Source of the DNA: Cystobasidiomycetes sp. EMM_F5 | Lineage: Eukaryota | Length of the DNA stretch: 20,000 nt | Direction: 5' to 3' | NCBI GenBank assembly: GCA_051047955.1 | Contig: JBPGPT010000027.1 | Coordinates: forward strand, 183,268-203,267 | Shown here: positions 495 through 20,000 of the stretch, in pieces | Numbering within the stretch: the first letter of the stretch is position 1 | Layout of the letters: every line of letters begins with the position of its first letter | The notes under the pieces: model-generated | The model's input: only the letters and a program-made list of their open reading frames with translations | Told to the model about the DNA's origin: nothing | Database searches by the model: none | Translations under genes and position numbers: made by a program

Positions 495-2623
495 TTACGA
501 TTTCCTTCTGTCGGCCTCGGGGATGAAGAAGAAGACTACGCCCATGCCGACCAACAGGCCAATGATGACTGGTTGCAAGACGACGGGGCCATACTTCTGC
601 GCAAGAACACCAGTGACTGTGACAGACTGCATTCAGTGGACGAATAGCACACACCTATGCATCAAATCACGTACGAAAAGGAAAGGCTGCACTACCCGCT
701 TGGCCCGCAGCTGCTACCAGTCCAATGGCTCCAGTGTGCAGCGGTTTCGGCAGTGTCTTTATCATTGCCATAATTCCAATACCAAAGAATGTCGACAGCA
801 GGAAGCCAATCAGACATATCGCGACCGCTGTAAGGTCAATATCGTATGAAACGTCAGCAGCTGTTCATATTGAATATCATAAGTCCACAACGCCGTACCG
901 TTGCCGATAAGCTGTCTCCAAAACCACACACTGAACTCAAGAAGAAGAGACAACGTGAGGTACGCGTAGAGGCACTTCCGATCTCCTAGCCGGACTTGCA
1001 GATGTGGCAAGGTAAGTCTTCCCAAGGTAATGCCTGACCAGAAGCGTAAATATGATTGCAAAAATCGTTAGCTTTTCGCGATTCAATGCGCAGAGGCTAA
1101 CTTATCTGTTGCTACATATCCGACGTTTGCCGAACCGCCTCTGCTCTGAAGCAGGAAAGAGACTGCCCACTGATTTTATGTGTCAGCTAGACAACGCTGA
1201 TGTCACGGATAGAGGGCGCCTACTCCTCCTATTGACACCTCGGCCCCGACACTAGAAAGTAATAGGGTCAGCCGCCTGAACAAGCCAGATCAAGTGTGAC
1301 TTGCTAAAAGAACAGGAAAAGAGCAGTAGCCCAAACAATCTTTGACTTGAAAATTAACTTGTTCTTGTCGGAAGTTGAGTATATGCGCTCAGTGTCCAGA
1401 GCCAGCGGGCGCGTAGAATCCGTAGTCATCGGCGTAGCTGCTCCTGAGGGTGATCCGATACCTGTCTCTTGCAACTCTATGCTATGTCCATTTCTTTCGC
1501 TGCTATTTTGAGGCGCAACCTTACGCTGCGGCCCGCATTCAGGGTCGCGACCAAAGGCGAAGAAGAGTGAGATGGAATTGAGTAACGCTAGACCTAGACT
1601 AATGCTAAAAAAGTAGCTGAAGCGAACACCGGAACTGGCGAGGGCGGTTGCGGCCAGAGGAGACAGCAGCGCGCCAACGCCCTTCATGACATGAGGTGCG
1701 TCAGTAAATCCAGGTCCCCTAGCGTAAGTAAGAGGGTATACTGCCTACGTAACAAGCCTGTGCATGATTGATCATTAAATTTGAATTCGGAAGACTCGCT
1801 AGCCACGATGAGGTTTGCGCCTGCGACTCATACGATGAGTCCGATAGACTATGGACTTGACAGATGTGCCCACCATCATGAAGGCCAAGCCAAATCCAAT
1901 CAGGCTGGCGTATACGACGGGAAAGAGCGGGAATGGAGGCGGGGCCAATAGAACTGCATATCCGCATGTTTGAAGCAGGGCAGCGAACGTCAATGTCTTG
2001 CCCATACCCAGGCGATCTGTTGCGAGGTTGTTAAGCAGTCCGGCAACGGCGAAACCGCTGAAGGCGCCGATGAAAATTGTAGAGACCTCGATGTAATTTA
2101 TCTTTTGACAATGAGGATCAGTTTGCGGACACGCGTCAGTGACTGTCGCTCCAATCTTACGTCAAAGAATCTTTCCCTGTTTCACAGCGTTTGGAAGCAA
2201 AACATTGAGCCGAAACCTGCTACTTGTGTAGAGTAAAATATCTCAGCGTACATGAAGGGTATCAATGCGCCTGCATCGGCGTGCACACGGAAACAACGTC
2301 ATATCACCGTCCCAAGTCAGATTCGATAGACGGGGAGTGGAAATTACAAGACTCGGCGTACCCGCGCATGCATCATTCCAACCACCAACACCTGCCTGCA
2401 AGCATGCCGCTGCAAACTGCCTATTCTGCTTCTTCTTTATGGTTGCGATGAATCTAGCTCGGCGGTTCTCTGTGCTCGATTGAACGCGGGACGATGGGCC
2501 ATCTTGTGTGAAAACAGGTGGCTCGACGAGTATCTTCTTGACTATATGCGCTGCAGATGGACTCTGCGGCAGACTCTCCAGCTTTGCGACCTCTGCGGCT
2601 GTTTCCTGATGCAATGAGGCCAT
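495..2623 (-). CDS. Major facilitator superfamily transporter (fungal FucP/Bsc6-like), multi-exon
   Basis: Hand splicing gives GWNDACAGALIPFMERFFD-INYIEVSTIF...LATDRLGMGK...IGFGLAF...HAQACYGVGALLSP...FLFFYVGAEVSIGGWAVSFL...GYVATGFWSGITLGR...GQAGSAAFPFLTGVLAQKYG...LQP, with stop TAA at 495..497. Many hydrophobic segments. The model requires a GC-AG intron (1252..1304) and an AT-AC intron (1046..1105). Confidence 0.9.
1046..1105 (-). other. Predicted AT-AC intron with U2-type signals (60 nt)
   Basis: Minus strand reads ACA G|ATAAGTTAG...GCTAAC...CATATTTAC|GC TTC TGG. Removal restores GYVATGFWSG; retention hits an in-frame TGA. Confidence 0.8.
1252..1304 (-). other. Predicted GC-AG intron (53 nt)
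   Basis: TTT TA|GCAAGT...GCTGAC...TTTCTAG|T GTC GGG GCC GAG restores FLFFYVGAEVSIGG; the unspliced frame stops at TAG. Confidence 0.88.
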
Positions 2624-5132: not shown

Positions 5133-6220
5133 CTAGACTTGCACAGGGGTCCAAAAGCCAACGCCAACGTTCCCGTTGTTGGATGTCACAAGTACATGGT
5201 GGTTGGGGAACAAAGAAGAAGCATCGGGGATTGCATTGGGCGCAAAGACGGCGTAGACGACATTGACGGAGCTGTGATCGATGAGACTGATGCGATCATG
5301 AAGCTCGCGCTGTATTTCCAAGCTACCATTCTGAGTCGACATTTCCAACGTCCCCGTGAACGAGATAGGCAGATACACAGTGGTCCGTCCTGGAAATGCA
5401 AATAAAGTCAGTCACGATCCTGTACGCAAAGTCTGGTTGCTGTCACCATTGAGAGAACGAGCCGCGATGGTCAGAGCATTCGAAGGCAATGGGGCTGTCG
5501 GCAGATCTCCTAGTCTCAAACAGATTTGGCCATTCGTAGTCTCTAGTAGGATGTCAGGGCTTTCGCCACGCGGTTGAAAGGTGTCCGATGGAGATATCGT
5601 TAACTGCGATGTGCCCGCAAATGTTAGCCGCTCGCGCGATCAGATCCTGAAATGTGCCGGGAACACGGCTATTCACCTCTGCTGAAATGCTCCCGTTGGT
5701 CGTTGAAATCTCGAATACAGGCCCGGGGCGGGACCCGACGTCGGTCAGCACAATATTGAAGGCACCAGCTATAGGCGAGTTTGTTGAAATGACGTGACCT
5801 GCGATAATTCGAGTCTTAGTATGTTGCATCTTTCTGACTCCATCAAACGCACCATGGCACTACAACGGATGGTGCGGGGTCAGCGGAAGGCGCTCGAGAA
5901 TGGATCCCATTGACGTTGCCATCCACAATGTGGATCGCCGGCATATCCTCATCGAACCCTCGCGGTGCTCCACCTTCGGTTTGTAATGCCGTCCAGTCAG
6001 AGTCATGGGACTGGCCGCGCGGGCGCGAGGACGCAACGTGCATGAACCCCGACCCTTGTGTTACGAAAGCATCACCAGAGACAGTGATAGAGCCATAGGT
6101 GTGACCGCCTATTCTATGCGATGGTATTCGGACGGTAGTGGTATCTCGGTTTGCGTTTGCTGTGCTGCTGGAGCTGCTGGCACGAGCAGCTTCTGGAAAC
6201 TGGCTCAGATCGGACACCAT
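5133..6220 (-). CDS. Hypothetical protein with repeated (S/T)xNG beta-strand motifs (DUF4097/DUF7330-like), multi-exon
   Basis: Likely start MVSDLSQFP at 6220. Spliced product has ISTNSPI, ISTTNGSI, ETTNGQI, RSLNGRT, STQNGSL, TSNNGNV repeats and VYLPISFTG; stop TAG at 5133..5135. Family call is from motif resemblance only and the start is uncertain. Confidence 0.65.
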
Positions 6221-10938: not shown

Positions 10939-12120
10939 CTATTGAAGATCGTAAAACAAAGTCGCGGTCGCGGTTGTTTGTGCAGCAATCTCGTCCTCAC
11001 TTTTGCCCGTGATTGCTGCGATACGATCTACTAGATGCAGCAGGCGTTCGGGCTAAAATGTCGTGCTTTAATTATGCGCTTGTGCACCTTCACATACTTT
11101 TGGCCTACCTTGAAATCGTTATTGCTATCTTTACTTAACGGTGCCAGTGGATGACCGGACTCGAGCATGAACTTGTCAAGGTCGTATGCCTCCAGTAGTT
11201 CTGATAATGTCGACCTATGTCTCTCAACAGCCAGCCATGCTGCAAATAGAAGGATGCGAGCGCAAAGCAGAAGCGTGATACAGTCGACACGTGAGCCCTT
11301 ACAGGCCTGTAGACTAGCTGAAGTTATGCGTACTAGGAAGGCCAAGGTATGAATTAGGAAGGGATATGAGACGCTTCATAAAGCGCATATTGGTGTTTGG
11401 GGTAAAATGTAACAATTTGCGGATATCGGGAAACTTGACGTATGTTGGTCTGAGTTGGTCAAGGTCGTCCTTGACCCGAAGAGTGATGGGCAGTTTAGCA
11501 ACTTCTGCTATTCTGACCTGCCTCTTGATGAAGGTCAACTGATGCTGCGTGTTTGTGATGAAGCGTTGCGAATAGCGAGATTTGCTTAGTTTGAGCTTGA
11601 GCCAACCTCGAGGATCTTGCGACTTGTCTGGCAGACGTTGAGGGAAAAGTTCTTCCACAGTGGGCATGTAGTGCAAACCGCAGTTGCCGATACCCTTGAC
11701 GACTTCTTTGTTCGAGGCGAGAAAAGTCCTGATTCTCTTCAACGGTTTCCCCATCTTCTTGATATCTGGGCACATCGGCGCGCCGTGAGTTTGAGAAGGT
11801 GTTGGGTGCAGTCCCAGAGTGCAGCGTAAAACAACTCCCGCGTCCTTGTAGTTTTGGCATGTCTGTATAGCGACTTCTGAGCTCTCGACGCTCCATGCGT
11901 TCATGACCCTGCCGGCGCAAGTCAGTCGCAACATCAGCGCAGTCAGTACAGACGCAGAGTCAGCCCATCTATCTTCAGTATCCGCATAATAAGAAGCCCT
12001 AATGTCAGCACATACAATATGCGATACTCCGACATTTCGATACTGCTCGAGCAAGGCAGTCAGCCTCACTGGGTCCACCTTGCCGGTCACTGCAGCTCCA
12101 GCATCGATGAGCCGTCGCAT
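10939..12120 (-). CDS. TatD-like (amidohydrolase TIM-barrel) protein with degenerate metal ligands
   Basis: Motifs in TatD order: LIDAG, LGLHP, GIGNCGLHY, RQVRIAEVAKLPI, LDKFMLESG, PERLLHLVDRIAAITGKSEDEIAAQTT...LFY. Predicted introns 11240..11333 and ~11053..11108; stop TAG at 10939..10941. Confidence 0.72.
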
Positions 12121-13884: not shown

Positions 13885-16800
13885 CTACGACTTGGACTTG
13901 CGTGTGGTACCCTTGGTAGTAGCGGATTTGGTAGTAATAGACTTTCGCTTCTTGGCTGGCGGCGCAACCGAATCCTCGTCACTTATTCCATCGCCATTGC
14001 TTTCTCTTTTGACGGAGAGCGTTGAGCCTTGCCCGGCATCGCTTGCAGCGTCACCATCTTTCGCATTTGCACGTGAGGCTTTGCCTTTTCTCGCTGGATC
14101 TTTTCGAGCTTCTTCCGGAGCGTGTTCCTTCTGGATGAGGGAAATGAGAGTGATGCACCTCCTTCCAATCTCAATGGGTGTACGAGACTTGATAAACCAG
14201 TTGAATCTGAAATCAGGCCAGTCGAGCACTTCGCGCTTGATCCTGTCGTATACGTCATCGCTGCCCACACCGTGTCTTGCCAGGGCACAGACGATGAAGC
14301 GATCCTCCTCCTCGGAATACGTCTTTGGCCGTTGTTGAACAGGGTACTTGATTGTCAATTGTTGTAGGGGGTGAGGATACGAAGCGACAATATCCTTGAT
14401 AAGCTGCGTTAGGCGAACATTCTTTGCATGTTGCTTCTCGGCTTCGGTGATCTTGCTAACTTGCCGCTCCCAGTCTGGTTGTTGTACGTCAGCAAAGCAA
14501 GTCATGGATCAGTGTGCGACCCGTCCCTACCCTCAATCTCCTTGTAACGCTCCCAGAAGACATCCGAGTAGCGCTTGACATCCTCTACGCTCTTTGCGCA
14601 TTCGGCAGCAATGCCGTTGAGGTCCTCGCGACCGTATCTCTCGCAGCCTCGAATAAATGCCTGGAAGTCACGCTTGTGCCAATCGCCAAAGCCAGTATTC
14701 TGCAGTGATTGCTTCTCCGCTTGCTCTTCTTCGGTAAGCGGTTCAGCTGTAAACAAGATTGACAAGTTAGGCCACGCGAACAAGTAACGATAAGAGAGAC
14801 TGACCATTATCAATATCAGCTTGCTCCTCCACCCGCTCCGCTTCAAGCTCTTCGGCAGTCATAGTTTTGTCTATTCCCAAAGGCACCTGGAAGTCTTGTA
14901 GCTTCTTCTGGTAATTAAGCTCGAGTTCTTGCAGCTCGAGTAGTCGAGGATCGAAGAATTGCCAATCACCCCTATAACCAATACCCTCAGCGATGTCATT
15001 ACACATGCTCAAAAAGTGGAAAACACTCACACTTGACCTTTAAGCTTGAGCTTTGCAGGTCGACGGCGATGCACGACCGACGAATAGTCTACTCCGAAAT
15101 TGGCTTTGCGCTCACGTTTCGATGGTTCGAGGAAGAAGAGGGCCTTCTTGGGTGCCTTTCCAAACGTCTCACCCTCCCATTCCCTCGTTCCGGGCGCATC
15201 AGACTTGAAGTTGTGCAAGTCATCGAAACCGAGACTCGCATATTTTGCATTCAGCTCTGCCGTTTTAGATTCTCCACGTTTGATGACGTCGTCAATAGCA
15301 TCGTCTATATCCATGCTCTCTTTGGCAGTCATGATTCGCTGAGCACCGTGCTGAATCATTTCTACCAGATCGTCTTTGCCTGCAGCTTTGTTGACGTTTG
15401 TGCTGCGGCCTTGCTGGATAACGAGCTGATCGAGTCGCAGCTTCTGTGCGGCTCGTTCCAGCACCTTCTCCTCGACCGCGTCCTCGGTGATGAATCTGAA
15501 AACGTAGACTTGCTTCTTTTGACCGATACGATGTGCGCGATCCATTGCTTGCAGATCGGCCTGCGGATTCCAATCGCTGTCGTACAGTACGACAATATCA
15601 GCAGTAACGAGGTTGATACCGAGTCCACCAGCTCGTGTAGTGAGCAAGAAGATGAATTTCTCAGAGTTTGGCTTATTGTATTCGTCAATTGCGGCAATAC
15701 GATCTTCATGACTGGTTGAGCCGTCAATTCGGCAGTAGCCATACTCGCGCAGGAAGCAGTAATCCTATGGCGGATGAAGAATAAGTAGTCTGTCAATGTC
15801 GACTGAAATGCAGGAGAAAGCCAGCGTACCTCAAGAAGATCGAGAACTCTGCTCATTTGCGAAAAGATGAGCACGCGGGATCCCTTCTCCTTCATCGTTC
15901 TCAGCAGCTTATCAAGGACCTTCATCTTGCCTGCGTTATCGACGAGGTGTTCATCGGTGGTATACGGCGGTCCAGGTTCCGCGCCATCAAAGAGATAAGG
16001 ATGATTGCAGCACTTGCGGAGCTGCATGACGATGTTGAGAAGGCGAGTCTTGCCCTCCTTCTTGCCCACCATCCCGTTAACGGCATCGATGTCCTTCTCC
16101 AGCAGCGATCTGTACCACTTCCTCTGCATCTCCGTCATGCCGACGTAGAGATTGATCTCCTTCTTCGGCAGCAAGCTCTTTTCCACATCAATCTTGACGC
16201 GACGAAGCAGGAAAGGCCGTAAGACTTTATGAAGTTGCTTGACCACACCATCCTGATCTTCCTCCTTACTATCAAGTCCATTGCCTCCTTTGGATGCTTT
16301 TGGCTTCTTGTCTGGGTTCTCTGCCTCTTTATCCGCTTCATCAATCGTCTTTCCGCCAGTCCGCTCACCAAACCAGGCATCGAAATCACCAACATCCGAA
16401 AAGACATCCGGGAGAAGGAAGTTGAGGAGTGCCCATAGTTCGTGTAGGTTGTTTTGCAGCGGGGTACCAGTAATGAGCAGTCTTGCTCTCGATTCAAATA
16501 TGCGTACAATTTGCGAGAGGATCGAATTTACATTCTTGATTCGGTGAGCTTCGTCAATGATAATGTACTCCCACGACAACTTTTTTAGCGTCGACTTTTC
16601 CCGCTGACAGATTTCGTACGAAGTGATGCACACATCGAAATTCTGGGTGAGAATCACCTCCTGACATTGTGCGGCACGTTCCTGCTTGTCGCCGCGGAGT
16701 ATCATTGTGCGGAATCCGGGAACCCAGTGGGCAAATTCACGAGACCAGTTGTCTAGTGTCGACTTGGGAACAATCACAAGATGCGGACCTGGAATATCAC

Positions 16801-18733
16801 GATGAAATTTGAGGTAGCCTAGGAACGAGATGGTCTGTAGTGTCTTTCCGAGTCCCATCTCGTCTGCCAGGATTCCGTTGATGCCGTTGTGGTAGAGCGA
16901 GATCATCCAGTTCAAACCTTGTACCTGATAATCTCGCATTTGACCACCCTTGACGACTGTATGGAGAAATTCAATCCCACGCGGACGAATCAAATAGGCG
17001 GAGACAATCACATCAGCCTATACTGCAGCCGATACTGAGTATTAAAGCAACCCACAGGCTGGCGATTCAGTAAAGACAAAACTATCATCCTCGCCATTCT
17101 GGTTCTCGCTACCATCAGCAAGGAGTTCAGCATCTTCCTGCTTTTCACTCTTTCTGCCTCTATGCAGTGCCGCCTTCTTAGTCGCAGCAGCAGCAGCAGC
17201 ACTACTTGCCGCTTTCTTGTCACGTGCGGCTTCGCTGTCCTCAAGAAGCAATGCGAACTCTGGATCTCGCGATTTTTTGAGATTGATAAAGTGTTGAAAG
17301 AGATCGGTCTGCCCGAGGAGATACGAGAAACGCTTGATGGAATCGGCGGCCTGTCATTCCCAAAGGAGAAATAGCGTGCAAGGAAGAAGAGTTCGGTGGA
17401 CGGAAGCGACGCGAAGACAAGCATGGACGGGTAGACGGTAAGCGGAAATTGTTACGGCAAAATACACAAAAGACCGGGCCGTGCGTCAGTCCAGCTGCTC
17501 CACTCGGACGTGTGAGACAGGCGACTACCCACCTTCTTGTCATTCACACCCCGCCTTGCTGCAGAGAGCTGAGATTTCTGGGCTGCCCGTTTTTCCTGTC
17601 GATGACGCGCCGTGTTCCAAAGTAGTACATAATGACATGAATGGCACATCTTTGATCAGCCTACTCCACTCCTTGCAGGTGTTGTCAAACGTCTCACCTT
17701 TATACGGCGAGAGACAGGGCGTGTGATGCGTTGTATTACAGGTAGTTTCAATGACAAGGATGACGCGTGACGCATCTCCATCAGCCCACACCCACTCCCT
17801 CTTTACATCTCATGTCAAACCACCCCACCTTTTTAGCACTCCTCTTATTCTGATTCTCCAACCTCTCTTTCAGCTTTTCCTTTTGTCTCTCCGTCATCTT
17901 TTTCGGCGTCGTCTTTACTCCGGTACCCCCCTCGTCATCCAACGCAATCTCATCATCGTCGTCATCGTCTGACGAGTTGTCGGAGTTTGATGATGCTAAA
18001 TCCATCTCTAGCTCGTCCCTGTCGTCCTCGTCGGGAAGTGTCGATCTGGATAGTTTGGATGGTCCTGCTGGTTGGGGAGCTACAGAGGGCTGTTGGTGAG
18101 CGGGAGAATATGAGATGGAGAGGGAGGATGGGGGAGAAGCGTGTAAAGAAGGCAAAGAGAGCATGTCGGTGAGTGGGAGAAATAAGAGATGGACAGGGAG
18201 AGCGTGCAAGATGAGGGAGAAGTGAAGAACGGGGATTGCAGAGAGAAAGACGGATGAGAAAGAGAACGGGGGATTTTAGAGAGATAGAAGAAAGCAGGAC
18301 GGAGGATCCAGAGGAAGGGCGGACAAGAGAAAGAACCGATACAAAAGAGAAAGAAAGAACGGAGAAGAGCATTAGAAGACGGAAGAGAAAGGAGAGAGAG
18401 AAAGAAAGAAGGAGAGAAAAAACATTAGCACTCCTCATACCTCACTCCTCAGGACCTTCACTCCTCGGGACCTTCGGCCCCTTGATCGTTACGGCCTTCG
18501 TCGTTAGAACTCACCTGCCTCGACGTCGCCCTGCTATCATCCACGACGATATCACTGAGCGTGTCATAATCCCCATTACTGCTCCCTTGCGCAGATGGCA
18601 CCTGAAGCATGTTTGCAGACTGTCCAATATCTCGACGCGTAGATTGGAGTCAGAGTGGGCGTGTCGATGGTATGAACGAGTGCTCGCAGTCAGTGTGGGT
18701 GTATATACTCTCAAGAGCACCACTCACGCTCAT
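13885..18733 (-). CDS. ISWI: ISWI-family SNF2 chromatin-remodelling ATPase (Isw1/Isw2-like), multi-exon
   Basis: [49 protein letters not shown] region (YSEEEDRF...[11 protein letters not shown]) and N-terminal [13 protein letters not shown]. Proposed exons: 18728..18733, 18515..18601 (or ..18619), 17829..18089, 17533..17595, 17056..17350, 15830..16956, 15031..15764, 14805..14971, 14531..14746, 13885..14474. The 5'-most exons are less certain than the core. Confidence 0.93.
18424..18505 (-). repeat. Intronic GAGGAGTG-repeat element, copy in ISWI intron 18090..18514
   Basis: AACGACGAAGGCCGTAACGATCAAGGGGCCGAAGGTCCCGAGGAGTGAAGGTCCTGAGGAGTGAGGTATGAGGAGTGCTAAT; three GAGGAGTG units; aligns by eye with 19802..19899. 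Confidence 0.8.
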
Positions 18734-18952
18734 CGTGTCCTTCTTGACCGAGTTGTCGGGATGTAAAGGATGGAGGGCATGATTTACAATGGAATGCGAG
18801 AGATTCTAATCGCGGAATAGTAGTCGCAGTCGAGGCATTACAGAGTGCAATAAGAGTGATGCACCGTCTACAATACATTCCTAATCACTTCATTATCCCT
18901 CTGCCAATATTTTGTAATCTCCCTCTGCTCTGCTCCATCCATCCATTCAATC
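18734..18952. promoter_or_regulatory. Short divergent intergenic region, putative bidirectional promoter of ISWI and PAM17
   Basis: 219 nt between the predicted head-to-head start codons (18733 on -, 18953 on +). Positional inference only. Confidence 0.5.
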
Positions 18953-20000
18953 ATGTCCCGCCTGTCGATGCTCTCTCGCCAACTGAGCACAGCCAGTCCA
19001 TCCCCGACGATGCAGTGGGGGCAGTACTTTACCCTGAGGAGGTCGAGGAGGAGGTGGGCGACGCTGGCAGCTGTCCCGACGTCGGTGGGGGGTGTGGTGT
19101 TGGGAGGAGGTGAGTGAAGCGAAGGGCCGTAGGTCCTGAGCAGTGGAGTAATGGCATTCGAGTATTCTACGAGGGCGCAGTCCGAGTACTGTAGCTTGTT
19201 TGATATTCTTTGTGTTTATGCACCGTCCTCCGTGGACTGAGCGTAGTCATTTATGCTGACGGTGGATTACTCTGTGTGTGTTGGTGTTTGTATTCTGTAT
19301 TATGTATTCTTCTATCCTTCTCCTCCTCTATTCATTCTCTCTTCCTTCTTTCCCTTCTTTCCCTCCTTTATCCTCTTCCCTTCCCTACTTTCTCTCTTAC
19401 TCTTACCTTCTCTTCTTCTCTCTCCATCTCTTCCATCTCTCCCCACCTCTCCCTCATTACACCTCCCTCCCATCTTCAGGCTACTTTGCCAACCTCGAGA
19501 CATCCCCCGGCTCGCTCATTGCAGGATTTGACCCTCTGATAGTGTGTGAGTATGTTTTACTCAATCTACATACTCACCACTGACTGTTTCACAACAGACG
19601 GCGCAGCAATGGTAGCGTGCGTCGCAGGGGGGTGGTTGAGTGGGCCGATACTGGGGAATGCAGTGTGGAGGGCGACGCATAGGAGCGTGAGGAAGGAGAT
19701 GGAGAGGATGGATGCAGTCTTTTTGAGGCATATTAGAGAGAGGAGGGTCGATCCGAGTAGGCAGAGTGTGAATAACCCAGTGCCGGATTATTGTGAGCAG
19801 CACGACGAGGAGCCGTAACGACGAAGGGCCAAACGACCGAAGGGCCGGAGGCCCTGAGGAGTGACGGTACTGAGGAGTGGAGGGCCGAGGAGTGCTTACT
19901 TTGTTGTGTCTTTTTTCTTCTCCTCTTCTTCTTCTCTTCTTCTTCTCTTCTCTTCTCTTCTCTTCTCTTCTCTTCTCTTCTCTTCTCTTCTCTTCTCTTC
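18953..20000 (+). CDS. PAM17: Mitochondrial presequence translocase-associated motor subunit Pam17; 3' end outside the window
   Basis: Exons 18953..19109, 19480..19545 and 19598..19792 give MSRLSMLSRQLST...WGQYFTLRRSRRR...GFDPLIVYG...GWLSGPILGNAVW...FLRHIRERRVDPSRQSVNNPVPDY. The intron starting at 19793 runs off the window. Confidence 0.9.
19121..19146 (+). repeat. Partial, degenerate copy of the intronic element in PAM17 intron 1
   Basis: GAAGGGCCGTAGGTCCTGAGCAGTGG, starting 11 nt after the first base of the GTGAGT donor; resembles the AAGGG(G)CCGRAGGYCCYGAGGAGTG core of the other two copies. Confidence 0.6.
19802..19899 (+). repeat. Intronic GAGGAGTG-repeat element, copy in PAM17 intron 3
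   Basis: ACGACGAGGAGCCGTAACGACGAAGGGCCAAACGACCGAAGGGCCGGAGGCCCTGAGGAGTGACGGTACTGAGGAGTGGAGGGCCGAGGAGTGCTTAC; three GAGGAGTG units ending in a branch-site-like TGCTTAC. Confidence 0.8.
19941..20000 (+). repeat. (TCTTC)n microsatellite within PAM17 intron 3
   Basis: 12 perfect TCTTC units up to the window end, preceded by degenerate CT-rich sequence from ~19909. Confidence 0.97.

Follow-up and report, generated by a model that had tools for sequence, protein, structure and literature searches.

Three large introns of the divergent ISWI and PAM17 genes of a cystobasidiomycete look like copies of one bipartite sequence with a C/T tail

Introduction

The stretch of 20,000 nucleotides (nt) analyzed here, referred to as the window, belongs to contig JBPGPT010000027.1 of the assembly GCA_051047955.1 of Cystobasidiomycetes sp. 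EMM_F5 (positions 183,268 to 203,267) and carries near its right end two divergently transcribed genes, one for an ISWI-type chromatin remodelling ATPase on the minus strand and one for PAM17 on the plus strand, both of which possess long introns. The three largest of these, ISWI intron 1 and PAM17 introns 1 and 3, look like sibling copies of one bipartite intron sequence, composed of a repeat-rich head close to the donor and a long tail of C and T, and judged from their letters they are likely to reflect local duplication more than a new splicing rule. The long introns are genuine, and on balance, though with restrained confidence, we consider it probable that the three largest represent such a copied sequence and that branching at a distal site is the likeliest route of their removal. 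An earlier note on this DNA had described a regional class of long introns and had derived it from a rule by which donor and branch site define the intron and the first AG further downstream is taken. The clustering of long introns was confirmed in part, and it is largely attributed here to shared ancestry and not regarded as a by-product of a splicing rule.

Gene models and reality of the introns

Spliced models were assembled from the window coordinates and then aligned to homologue proteins. Where the three largest ISWI introns (425, 233 and 182 nt) are removed, the model proved colinear with the protein of Mixia (P0005), and where the 99-nt intron is removed, with all aligned homologues; the PAM17 model was colinear with P0121 and P0123 across the 370- and 52-nt introns. 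The earlier note had singled out four long introns (ISWI introns 1, 3 and 4 and PAM17 intron 1) in which the first AG behind a branch-like motif restores the reading frame; this held for all four, and the spliced proteins align to homologues without insertions or deletions across the junctions. The note was likewise correct in every intron coordinate and length, in the distances of the motifs and in the extent of the AG-free stretches. Since the spliced proteins are colinear with homologues at every junction, the long ISWI and PAM17 introns are genuine, their acceptor being the first AG behind the tract. Past the third PAM17 donor the homologues possess about 30 more residues that do not occur in the window, from which it follows that PAM17 intron 3 is real as well and has its acceptor beyond base 20000.

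It is exceedingly improbable that the CT-rich tracts of these introns are instead promoter CT-boxes or untranslated leaders and that the exons upstream of them are spurious. CT-rich tracts near transcription starts are a known promoter feature in fungi, and both tracts flank one common intergenic region of 357 bp, which separates the two genes and would suit such an explanation. However, a promoter CT-box is expected upstream of the coding region, and here each of the two tracts is preceded by a conserved coding exon. ISWI exon 1 encodes the acidic-LSD-[IY]..SR motif of the family N-terminus, present in 15 of 15 aligned homologues, and the weak tblastn matches of many homologues fall on this exon; PAM17 exon 1 contains positions 9-50 of the Pam17 profile, and both first exons join the next exon colinearly. 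The Pfam match to Pam17 on the plus strand extends over profile positions 9-50 in 18860-19114 and 65-138 in 19543-19815 and thereby covers exons 1 and 3. As to the ISWI leader, a candidate extra upstream intron (108 or 126 nt) would fall in 18611-18740 of the minus strand, and the ATG at 18610 already yields an N-terminus as long as that of the homologues.

Three relatives of PAM17 of ORF type (ORF, open reading frame; P0122, P0124 and P0125) read through their introns and expose the intron positions of these relatives. The positions of introns 1 and 2 are common to the window and to these relatives. The third intron of the relatives (75 nt in P0124) is situated between the codons for NNP and VPDY, and that of the window sits 13 nt further downstream and in another phase.

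The remaining ISWI introns after intron 4 measure 65, 59, 58 and 56 nt. That introns left of 16.9 kb mostly comprise 52-75 nt, as had been stated, was checked in part, on ten curated short introns of 50-65 nt; five of them (ISWI, PAM17) are backed by frame or homology, and for the other five (COG5, RWD) simply the shortest canonical solution bridging the ORFs was taken. Among the introns of other genes, the 94-nt intron at 11240-11333 had been named as a milder case of long spacing. When the TatD ORF was searched against 1.84 billion protein representatives, the public protein P0126 was found to equal the unspliced TatD-like ORF (100% over 268 amino acids (aa), window 11034-12120, minus strand), and P0127 corresponds to the window with 11240-11333 removed and with a 56-nt intron at 11053-11108 read through, which supports 11240-11333 as an intron, although P0127 may be a gene model and not a transcript. 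These matches point to the presence of a sequence of this organism, or of a near-identical strain, in the public protein library. No public protein containing ISWI exon 2 (90-287 aa) was found in the search. Apart from this, a possible 463-nt intron was noticed in the DUF7330 gene (5390-5852, minus strand), with a GTGCGT donor and a CTGAC 18 nt from a CAG acceptor; if it is real, long introns are not limited to the right end of the window, and its branch motif is a proximal one.

Three introns with a shared head

The head is recognizable as a 64-nt inverted repeat (18443-18506 against 19816-19879, 83% complementary) and as a 26-nt direct repeat (19120-19145 against 19838-19863, 88%), and because ISWI is encoded on the minus and PAM17 on the plus strand, all three copies lie in sense orientation. 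Between ISWI intron 1 and PAM17 intron 3 the heads are identical in 66 of 81 columns (81.5%, one gap), over a span that begins 8 and 23 nt past the respective donors and reaches up to the branch-like motif. Local alignment scores of the three head pairs amounted to 105, 37 and 30 against about 15 +/- 2.4 in shuffles, and for each of the pairs none of 500 dinucleotide shuffles attained the observed score. ISWI introns 2, 3 and 4 resembled neither the sibling introns nor each other (z -1.3 to 2.4). All heads are period-16 arrays according to Tandem Repeats Finder (TRF), with unit numbers that by eye are approximately one plus one, two plus three and three plus three, and a small GGGCC-NNN-GGYCC hairpin appears in the predicted fold of each. 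With up to three mismatches allowed, the 14-mer GGTCCTGAGGAGTG matched five times in the window, each time with at most one mismatch, in sense orientation and within the three sibling introns; shuffles gave 1.84 matches on average, and five or more in 11 of 200 cases.

Head and tail occur together in three of three sibling introns and nowhere else in the 20 kb, and the head is anchored to the donor in all three; no further copy of the head was found in the window, the other seven genes included. The two parts are strikingly different in composition, with 12, 14 and 14 AGs in the heads against none in any of the three tails. Sense-strand 100-nt windows with at least 80% pyrimidine were confined to the three sibling introns, the only others at this level in the pyrimidine scan being those of the purine-rich coding part of ISWI exon 2. 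The tail of PAM17 intron 3 includes (TCTTC)16 at 19919-20000 (93% matching, TRF). One copied bipartite intron with a tail grown by slippage would explain, without selection, both the regional clustering of the long introns and the length of their tracts. A homology of the tails was rejected as unprovable, as their resemblance does not go beyond low complexity, and homology holds for the heads only.

Outside the window, the head pattern yielded five matches in metagenome contigs, all in unrelated sequence without flanking similarity (four with 62-74% G+C, one with 38%) and judged to be chance, and a double-unit head pattern yielded none in prokaryote genome contigs.

Candidate branch points

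The adenines proposed earlier as branch points were found at the predicted distances from the 3' end of the intron, namely 335 nt for CTAAT in ISWI intron 1 (A at 18425), 220 nt for CTGAC in PAM17 intron 1 (A at 19259), 135 nt for CTGAC in ISWI intron 3 (A at 17486) and 56 nt for CTGAT in ISWI intron 4 (A at 17013). No sense-strand AG lies between motif and acceptor in any of the four, and the two longest AG-free runs extend over 18091-18431 (minus strand) and 19246-19478 (plus strand). Behind the CTAAT of ISWI intron 1 come a T run and the CT tract; in PAM17 intron 1 a T/G-rich stretch separates the CTGAC from the CT tract. When the five long introns are considered, the AG-free zones comprise 339, 231, 142, 59 and 52 nt, the third value being that of ISWI intron 3, compared with a distance of 12-28 nt between branch-like motif and acceptor in the ten short introns. 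In all five, the terminal AG-free zone starts within 1-10 nt of a YTRAY motif (Fisher p 0.0098, or 0.016 when the four ISWI introns, which are not homologous, are taken by themselves), the individual probabilities under random placement of the same number of motifs being 0.037, 0.335, 0.066, 0.103 and 0.105.

The best branch-like motif of the short introns has a T-purine-A core in ten of ten, situated at the distance just given, and eight of the ten match NTRAY; ISWI I6 and RWD_a show a CTGA motif ending in a purine, 15 and 12 nt from the acceptor, in addition to an NTRAY further upstream. Counted from the 3' end, the 182-nt ISWI intron 3 holds neither NTRAY nor yTnAy from 4 to 87 nt, and its nearest relaxed motif stands at 88 nt. 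At least in this intron the distance from branch to AG is likely to lie well above the norm of the organism, and a distant branch point is a plausible candidate that is best supported here.

A first-AG rule would need the usual minimum distance in any case, because AGs only 2-9 nt past a candidate branch site go unused in ISWI introns 2 and 5 and possibly in 6. An RNA structure bridging the 425-nt intron was rejected, for the whole-intron fold is no better than that of shuffles (z +0.89; equalled or surpassed by 83 of 100 shuffles).

AG-free tracts and base composition

Mononucleotide shuffles of each tract, taken from the branch A to the acceptor, gave expected AG numbers of 2.25 for the 425-nt ISWI intron 1, 1.28 for the 370-nt PAM17 intron 1, 3.17 for the 182-nt ISWI intron 3 and 1.74 for the 99-nt ISWI intron 4, with probabilities of finding no AG of 0.085, 0.25, 0.023 and 0.11, respectively. 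Combined, these amount to a Fisher p of about 0.012, which is uncorrected for the selection of extreme cases by the earlier reader. Summed over the four tracts, AG occurs 0 times and GA 10 times. Altogether 13 AG-free runs of at least 90 nt exist on the two strands of the window, four of which are sense-strand 3' parts of these introns; another, of 118 nt, lies on the sense strand in ISWI exon 5 (16365-16482). AG is absent only weakly beyond what composition predicts. It had been proposed as a check whether pyrimidine composition would explain the absence, and the answer is essentially yes for the 425- and 370-nt introns and no only for the 182-nt intron.

Discussion

The sibling introns may be pictured as follows. 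A GTGAG donor would be followed within about 10-25 nt by a purine-rich, AG-rich head made of variable numbers of two 16-nt sub-repeats, then by a branch-like motif (CTAAT, CTGAC or CTTAC) and a T run; the C/T microsatellite tail would come next and extend to the first AG. The size of these introns would derive from the tail, growing by slippage, and the lack of AG mainly from tail composition (8-10% A, 3-8% G), to which selection probably contributes, since a new AG in the tail would be a premature acceptor. During splicing, U2 would pair with the strong branch motif at the junction of head and tail, the pyrimidine tract just downstream would offer a U2AF-type binding site, and the second step would use the first AG, so that a mammalian-style distant-branch intron without bridging RNA structure would result. 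ISWI introns 2-4, which are unrelated, would simply be longer 5'-proximal introns with about 56-135 nt from branch to AG. The mechanism proposed in the earlier note is the one established for mammals and not a new rule; scanning from a distant branch point to the first AG is the standard mammalian model (PMC3239191).

Several findings weigh against this reading. The similarity of the tail pairs was matched by 130, 50 and 246 of 500 shuffles, the head of PAM17 intron 1 shares merely 26 nt, and the branch-like motif differs between the two best copies (CTAAT vs CTTAC). For the two CT tails, AG exclusion is undemonstrated at probabilities of 0.085 and 0.25. Moreover, a CTCAT precedes the acceptor by 21 nt in ISWI intron 1 (A at 18111) and by 23 nt in PAM17 intron 1 (A at 19456), and the 94-nt TatD intron lacks NTRAY altogether, its sole candidate being a CTCAC at 52 nt, which makes CTCAY a possible branch site here. 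Fungal pyrimidine tracts, furthermore, usually lie between donor and branch site, as do 83% of those in Fusarium, where CTHAH accounts for about 4-5% of branch sites (PMC5677156), and this usual position fits a proximal branch site. The same facts nourish the alternative that the CT-tailed introns branch at the proximal CTCAT and that the AG-free tract is functionless, which we regard as rather unlikely. In its favor, the spacing of 21 and 23 nt falls within the range of the short introns and the absence of AG is compositional. However, the best motif of every short intron has the T-purine-A core and none is CTCAY, a perfect CTRAY stands exactly at the head-tail boundary, CTCAY is so common in the ISWI tail (five copies in 335 nt) that one in the right place is not rare, and ISWI intron 3 would be left unexplained.

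Regarding the rule favored in the earlier note, by which the long introns would be independent cases of a genome-wide definition by donor, branch site and first AG, we see a real possibility but lean against it. The coincidence of a branch-like motif with the start of the AG-free zone in all five long introns speaks for the proposal, as do the nearest relaxed motif of ISWI intron 3 at 88 nt from the acceptor combined with its low probability of lacking AG (0.023), the intermediate spacings (46-60 nt) shown by ISWI introns 2 and 4 as well as by those of TatD and MFS, and the agreement of P0127 with the window minus 11240-11333. What does not stand is the independence of the cases, as three of the long introns are homologous; in addition, composition accounts for the two longest AG-free tracts, nine of the 13 AG-free runs of at least 90 nt lie outside these intron tails, and the skipped AGs in ISWI introns 2, 5 and possibly 6 call for the minimum distance mentioned above.

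An origin by mobile, intron-creating elements appears improbable, yet deserves comparison. The bipartite unit would then be an introner-like element residing in many genes, ready-made with donor, 16-nt-repeat head, branch site and self-expanding C/T tail, which creates distant-branch introns; the window would hold three local insertions, and PAM17 intron 3 would be a recent lineage-specific gain, an assumption to which we give equally little credence. Similar introns at three positions in two unrelated genes, always in sense and with the head next to the donor, agree with it, and so does the position of PAM17 intron 3, which lies 13 nt away from the intron read through by the three ORF-type relatives and has another phase. 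Introner-like elements of Dothideomycetes likewise have a shared sequence from the donor on in unrelated genes, are longer than regular introns and bring their own splice signals (PMC3609843, PMC4457414, PMC9860276, PMC12130899), and although one survey named Pezizomycotina as the only fungal group with introners (PMC9860276), they were later found in basidiomycetes (PMC12130899). Unlike such elements, the unit is known here from only three copies, all within 1.5 kb of the 20-kb window and none in its other seven genes, the head folds are not consistently stable against shuffles (z -1.1, -3.0 and -1.5), and PAM17 intron 1 occupies a position common to relatives; nor is a microsatellite tail a described feature of introner-like elements in the consulted parts of these papers. 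Inspection by eye revealed neither terminal inverted repeats nor target-site duplications, the 3' end of one copy lying outside the window. The pattern scans of metagenome and prokaryote contigs gave only the five chance matches and none, respectively, and the Pucciniomycotina in the consulted part of the survey table, Mixia and Rhodotorula, are listed with 0 introners (PMC12130899).

The reading preferred here, a copied bipartite sequence with probable distal branching, has a close likeness in human distant-branch exons (Gooding et al., 2006, PMC1431707; PMC3239191), in which the acceptor is the first AG after a long AG-free stretch, a consensus branch motif stands at the upstream edge of the zone, followed by a pyrimidine tract, and the tract is unstructured. 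Human AG exclusion zones are unstructured and concern about 0.6% of introns, with 149-291 nt in HTR4 (PMC3239191). Unlike the human case, the organism is a fungus with a short-intron spacing of 12-28 nt (n = 10), the branch points are motifs only, the tract is a C/T microsatellite in which AG exclusion is inseparable from composition, and three of the cases are copies of one sequence. Among fungi, COF1 and UBC13 of Saccharomyces cerevisiae also place the branch site more than 50 nt from the acceptor (Gahura et al., 2011, PMC3239191), as would the candidate branch sites here; however, the yeast introns rely on an AG-hiding stem between branch and acceptor, whereas the present tract cannot pair with itself and its fold is no better than that of shuffles. 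Should CTCAT at 21-23 nt be the branch site, the introns would resemble ordinary fungal ones with a CT tract between donor and branch (Kupfer et al., 2004, cited in PMC5677156), although ordinary tracts comprise 6-25 nt (PMC5677156) as compared with 220-335 nt here.

If the distal branch sites are real, a fungus with standard introns of 50-65 nt splices across 135-335 nt of unstructured pyrimidine tract, in the mammalian way and not in that of budding yeast, and would provide a small tractable system for the finding of the AG in the second step. If the shared head marks a genome-wide family, Pucciniomycotina would possess an intron-generating element of new design, and whether the bipartite unit is such an element may be the most interesting question. 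If neither holds, the result keeps a practical side: in both genes exon 1 will escape gene finders tuned to short fungal introns, and the AG-free tracts give no warrant for assuming exclusion zones under selection.

The locus and its other features

The large exon at 15830-16954 (minus strand) encodes the ISWI-type ATPase, which is most similar to that of Mixia osmundae (78% identity), followed by many proteins of Microbotryomycetes, rusts and Tremellomycetes (73-76%); no identical ISWI protein was among the matches listed. The best named relative of PAM17 is that of Cystobasidium minutum (69%), and two unnamed proteins reach 75-77%. Judged by these identities, the DNA is basidiomycete, probably of a member of the Pucciniomycotina that has no close sequenced relative in the libraries searched, and it differs from the rusts among the matches (73-74%). 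The features discussed, together with the other genes assigned by Pfam, are compiled in Table 1.

Table 1. Features of the ISWI and PAM17 genes and other genes of the window (positions of the window; strand as given).
Feature	Position	Strand	Remarks
ISWI exon 1	18515..18610	-	32 codons; conserved N-terminal LSD..SR motif; aligns to N-termini of 15 homologues
ISWI intron 1	18090..18514	-	425 nt; bipartite, head and CT tail; frame and homology across junction
ISWI intron 1 head	18424..18507	-	16-nt sub-repeats; GGGCC-NNN-GGYCC hairpin; ends GAGGAGTG-CTAAT (branch-like A at 18425)
ISWI intron 1 tail	18092..18423	-	CT-rich, AG-free, 83% pyrimidine; proximal CTCAT, A at 18111
ISWI intron 2	17596..17828	-	233 nt; sequence unrelated; CTGAT 60 nt from acceptor
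ISWI intron 3	17351..17532	-	182 nt; sequence unrelated; sole YTRAY is CTGAC (A at 17486), 135 nt from acceptor
ISWI intron 4	16957..17055	-	99 nt; CTGAT 56 nt or TTGAT 33 nt from acceptor
PAM17 exon 1	18968..19109	+	presequence-like N-terminus and start of Pam17 domain; profile positions 9-50; aligns to P0121, P0123
PAM17 intron 1	19110..19479	+	370 nt; head core 19120-19145; CTGAC (A at 19259); CT tail 19265-19477
PAM17 intron 2	19546..19597	+	52 nt; ordinary short intron; CTGAC 14 nt from acceptor
PAM17 intron 3	19793..>20000	+	>208 nt, leaves window; full head 19793-19899 ending GAGGAGTG-CTTAC; T run; CT tail
MFS transporter		-	Pfam
DUF7330 protein		-	Pfam
COG5		+	Pfam
RWD/DFRP protein		+	Pfam
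TatD-like protein		-	Pfam
PP2C		+	Pfam

Within 16800-20000, Rfam (E <= 1) returned a single match, gut-2, which at 20.1 bits against a gathering score of 39.8 was judged to be chance, and ARAGORN detected no tRNA-like gene; an origin of the long introns from a small nucleolar RNA (snoRNA) or from the head of a short interspersed nuclear element (SINE) thus found no support in these scans.

Some minor observations concern the introns themselves. The last approximately 35 nt of ISWI intron 1 (the block TCCATCTC...CTCCC-CTCACC) are present twice, about 74 nt apart (~18094-18130 and 18164-18204, minus strand), which suggests an internal duplication of the 3' end of this intron. Its donor (18509-18514) pairs with a GCTCAC near the 3' end (~18096-18101) in the minimum-energy and centroid folds, and in PAM17 intron 2 the donor GTGAGTAT (19546-19553) is exactly complementary to ATACTCAC (19570-19577) just upstream of the branch motif; both pairings may be chance or an end-joining helix.

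Elsewhere in the window, a direct repeat of 75 nt (38-112 against 2360-2434, plus strand, 72% identity) was found, one copy of which adjoins the donor of a putative 91-nt MFS intron, possibly as paralogous exon ends, and a perfect (GCA)6 at 17184-17201 encodes an alanine run in ISWI exon 4.

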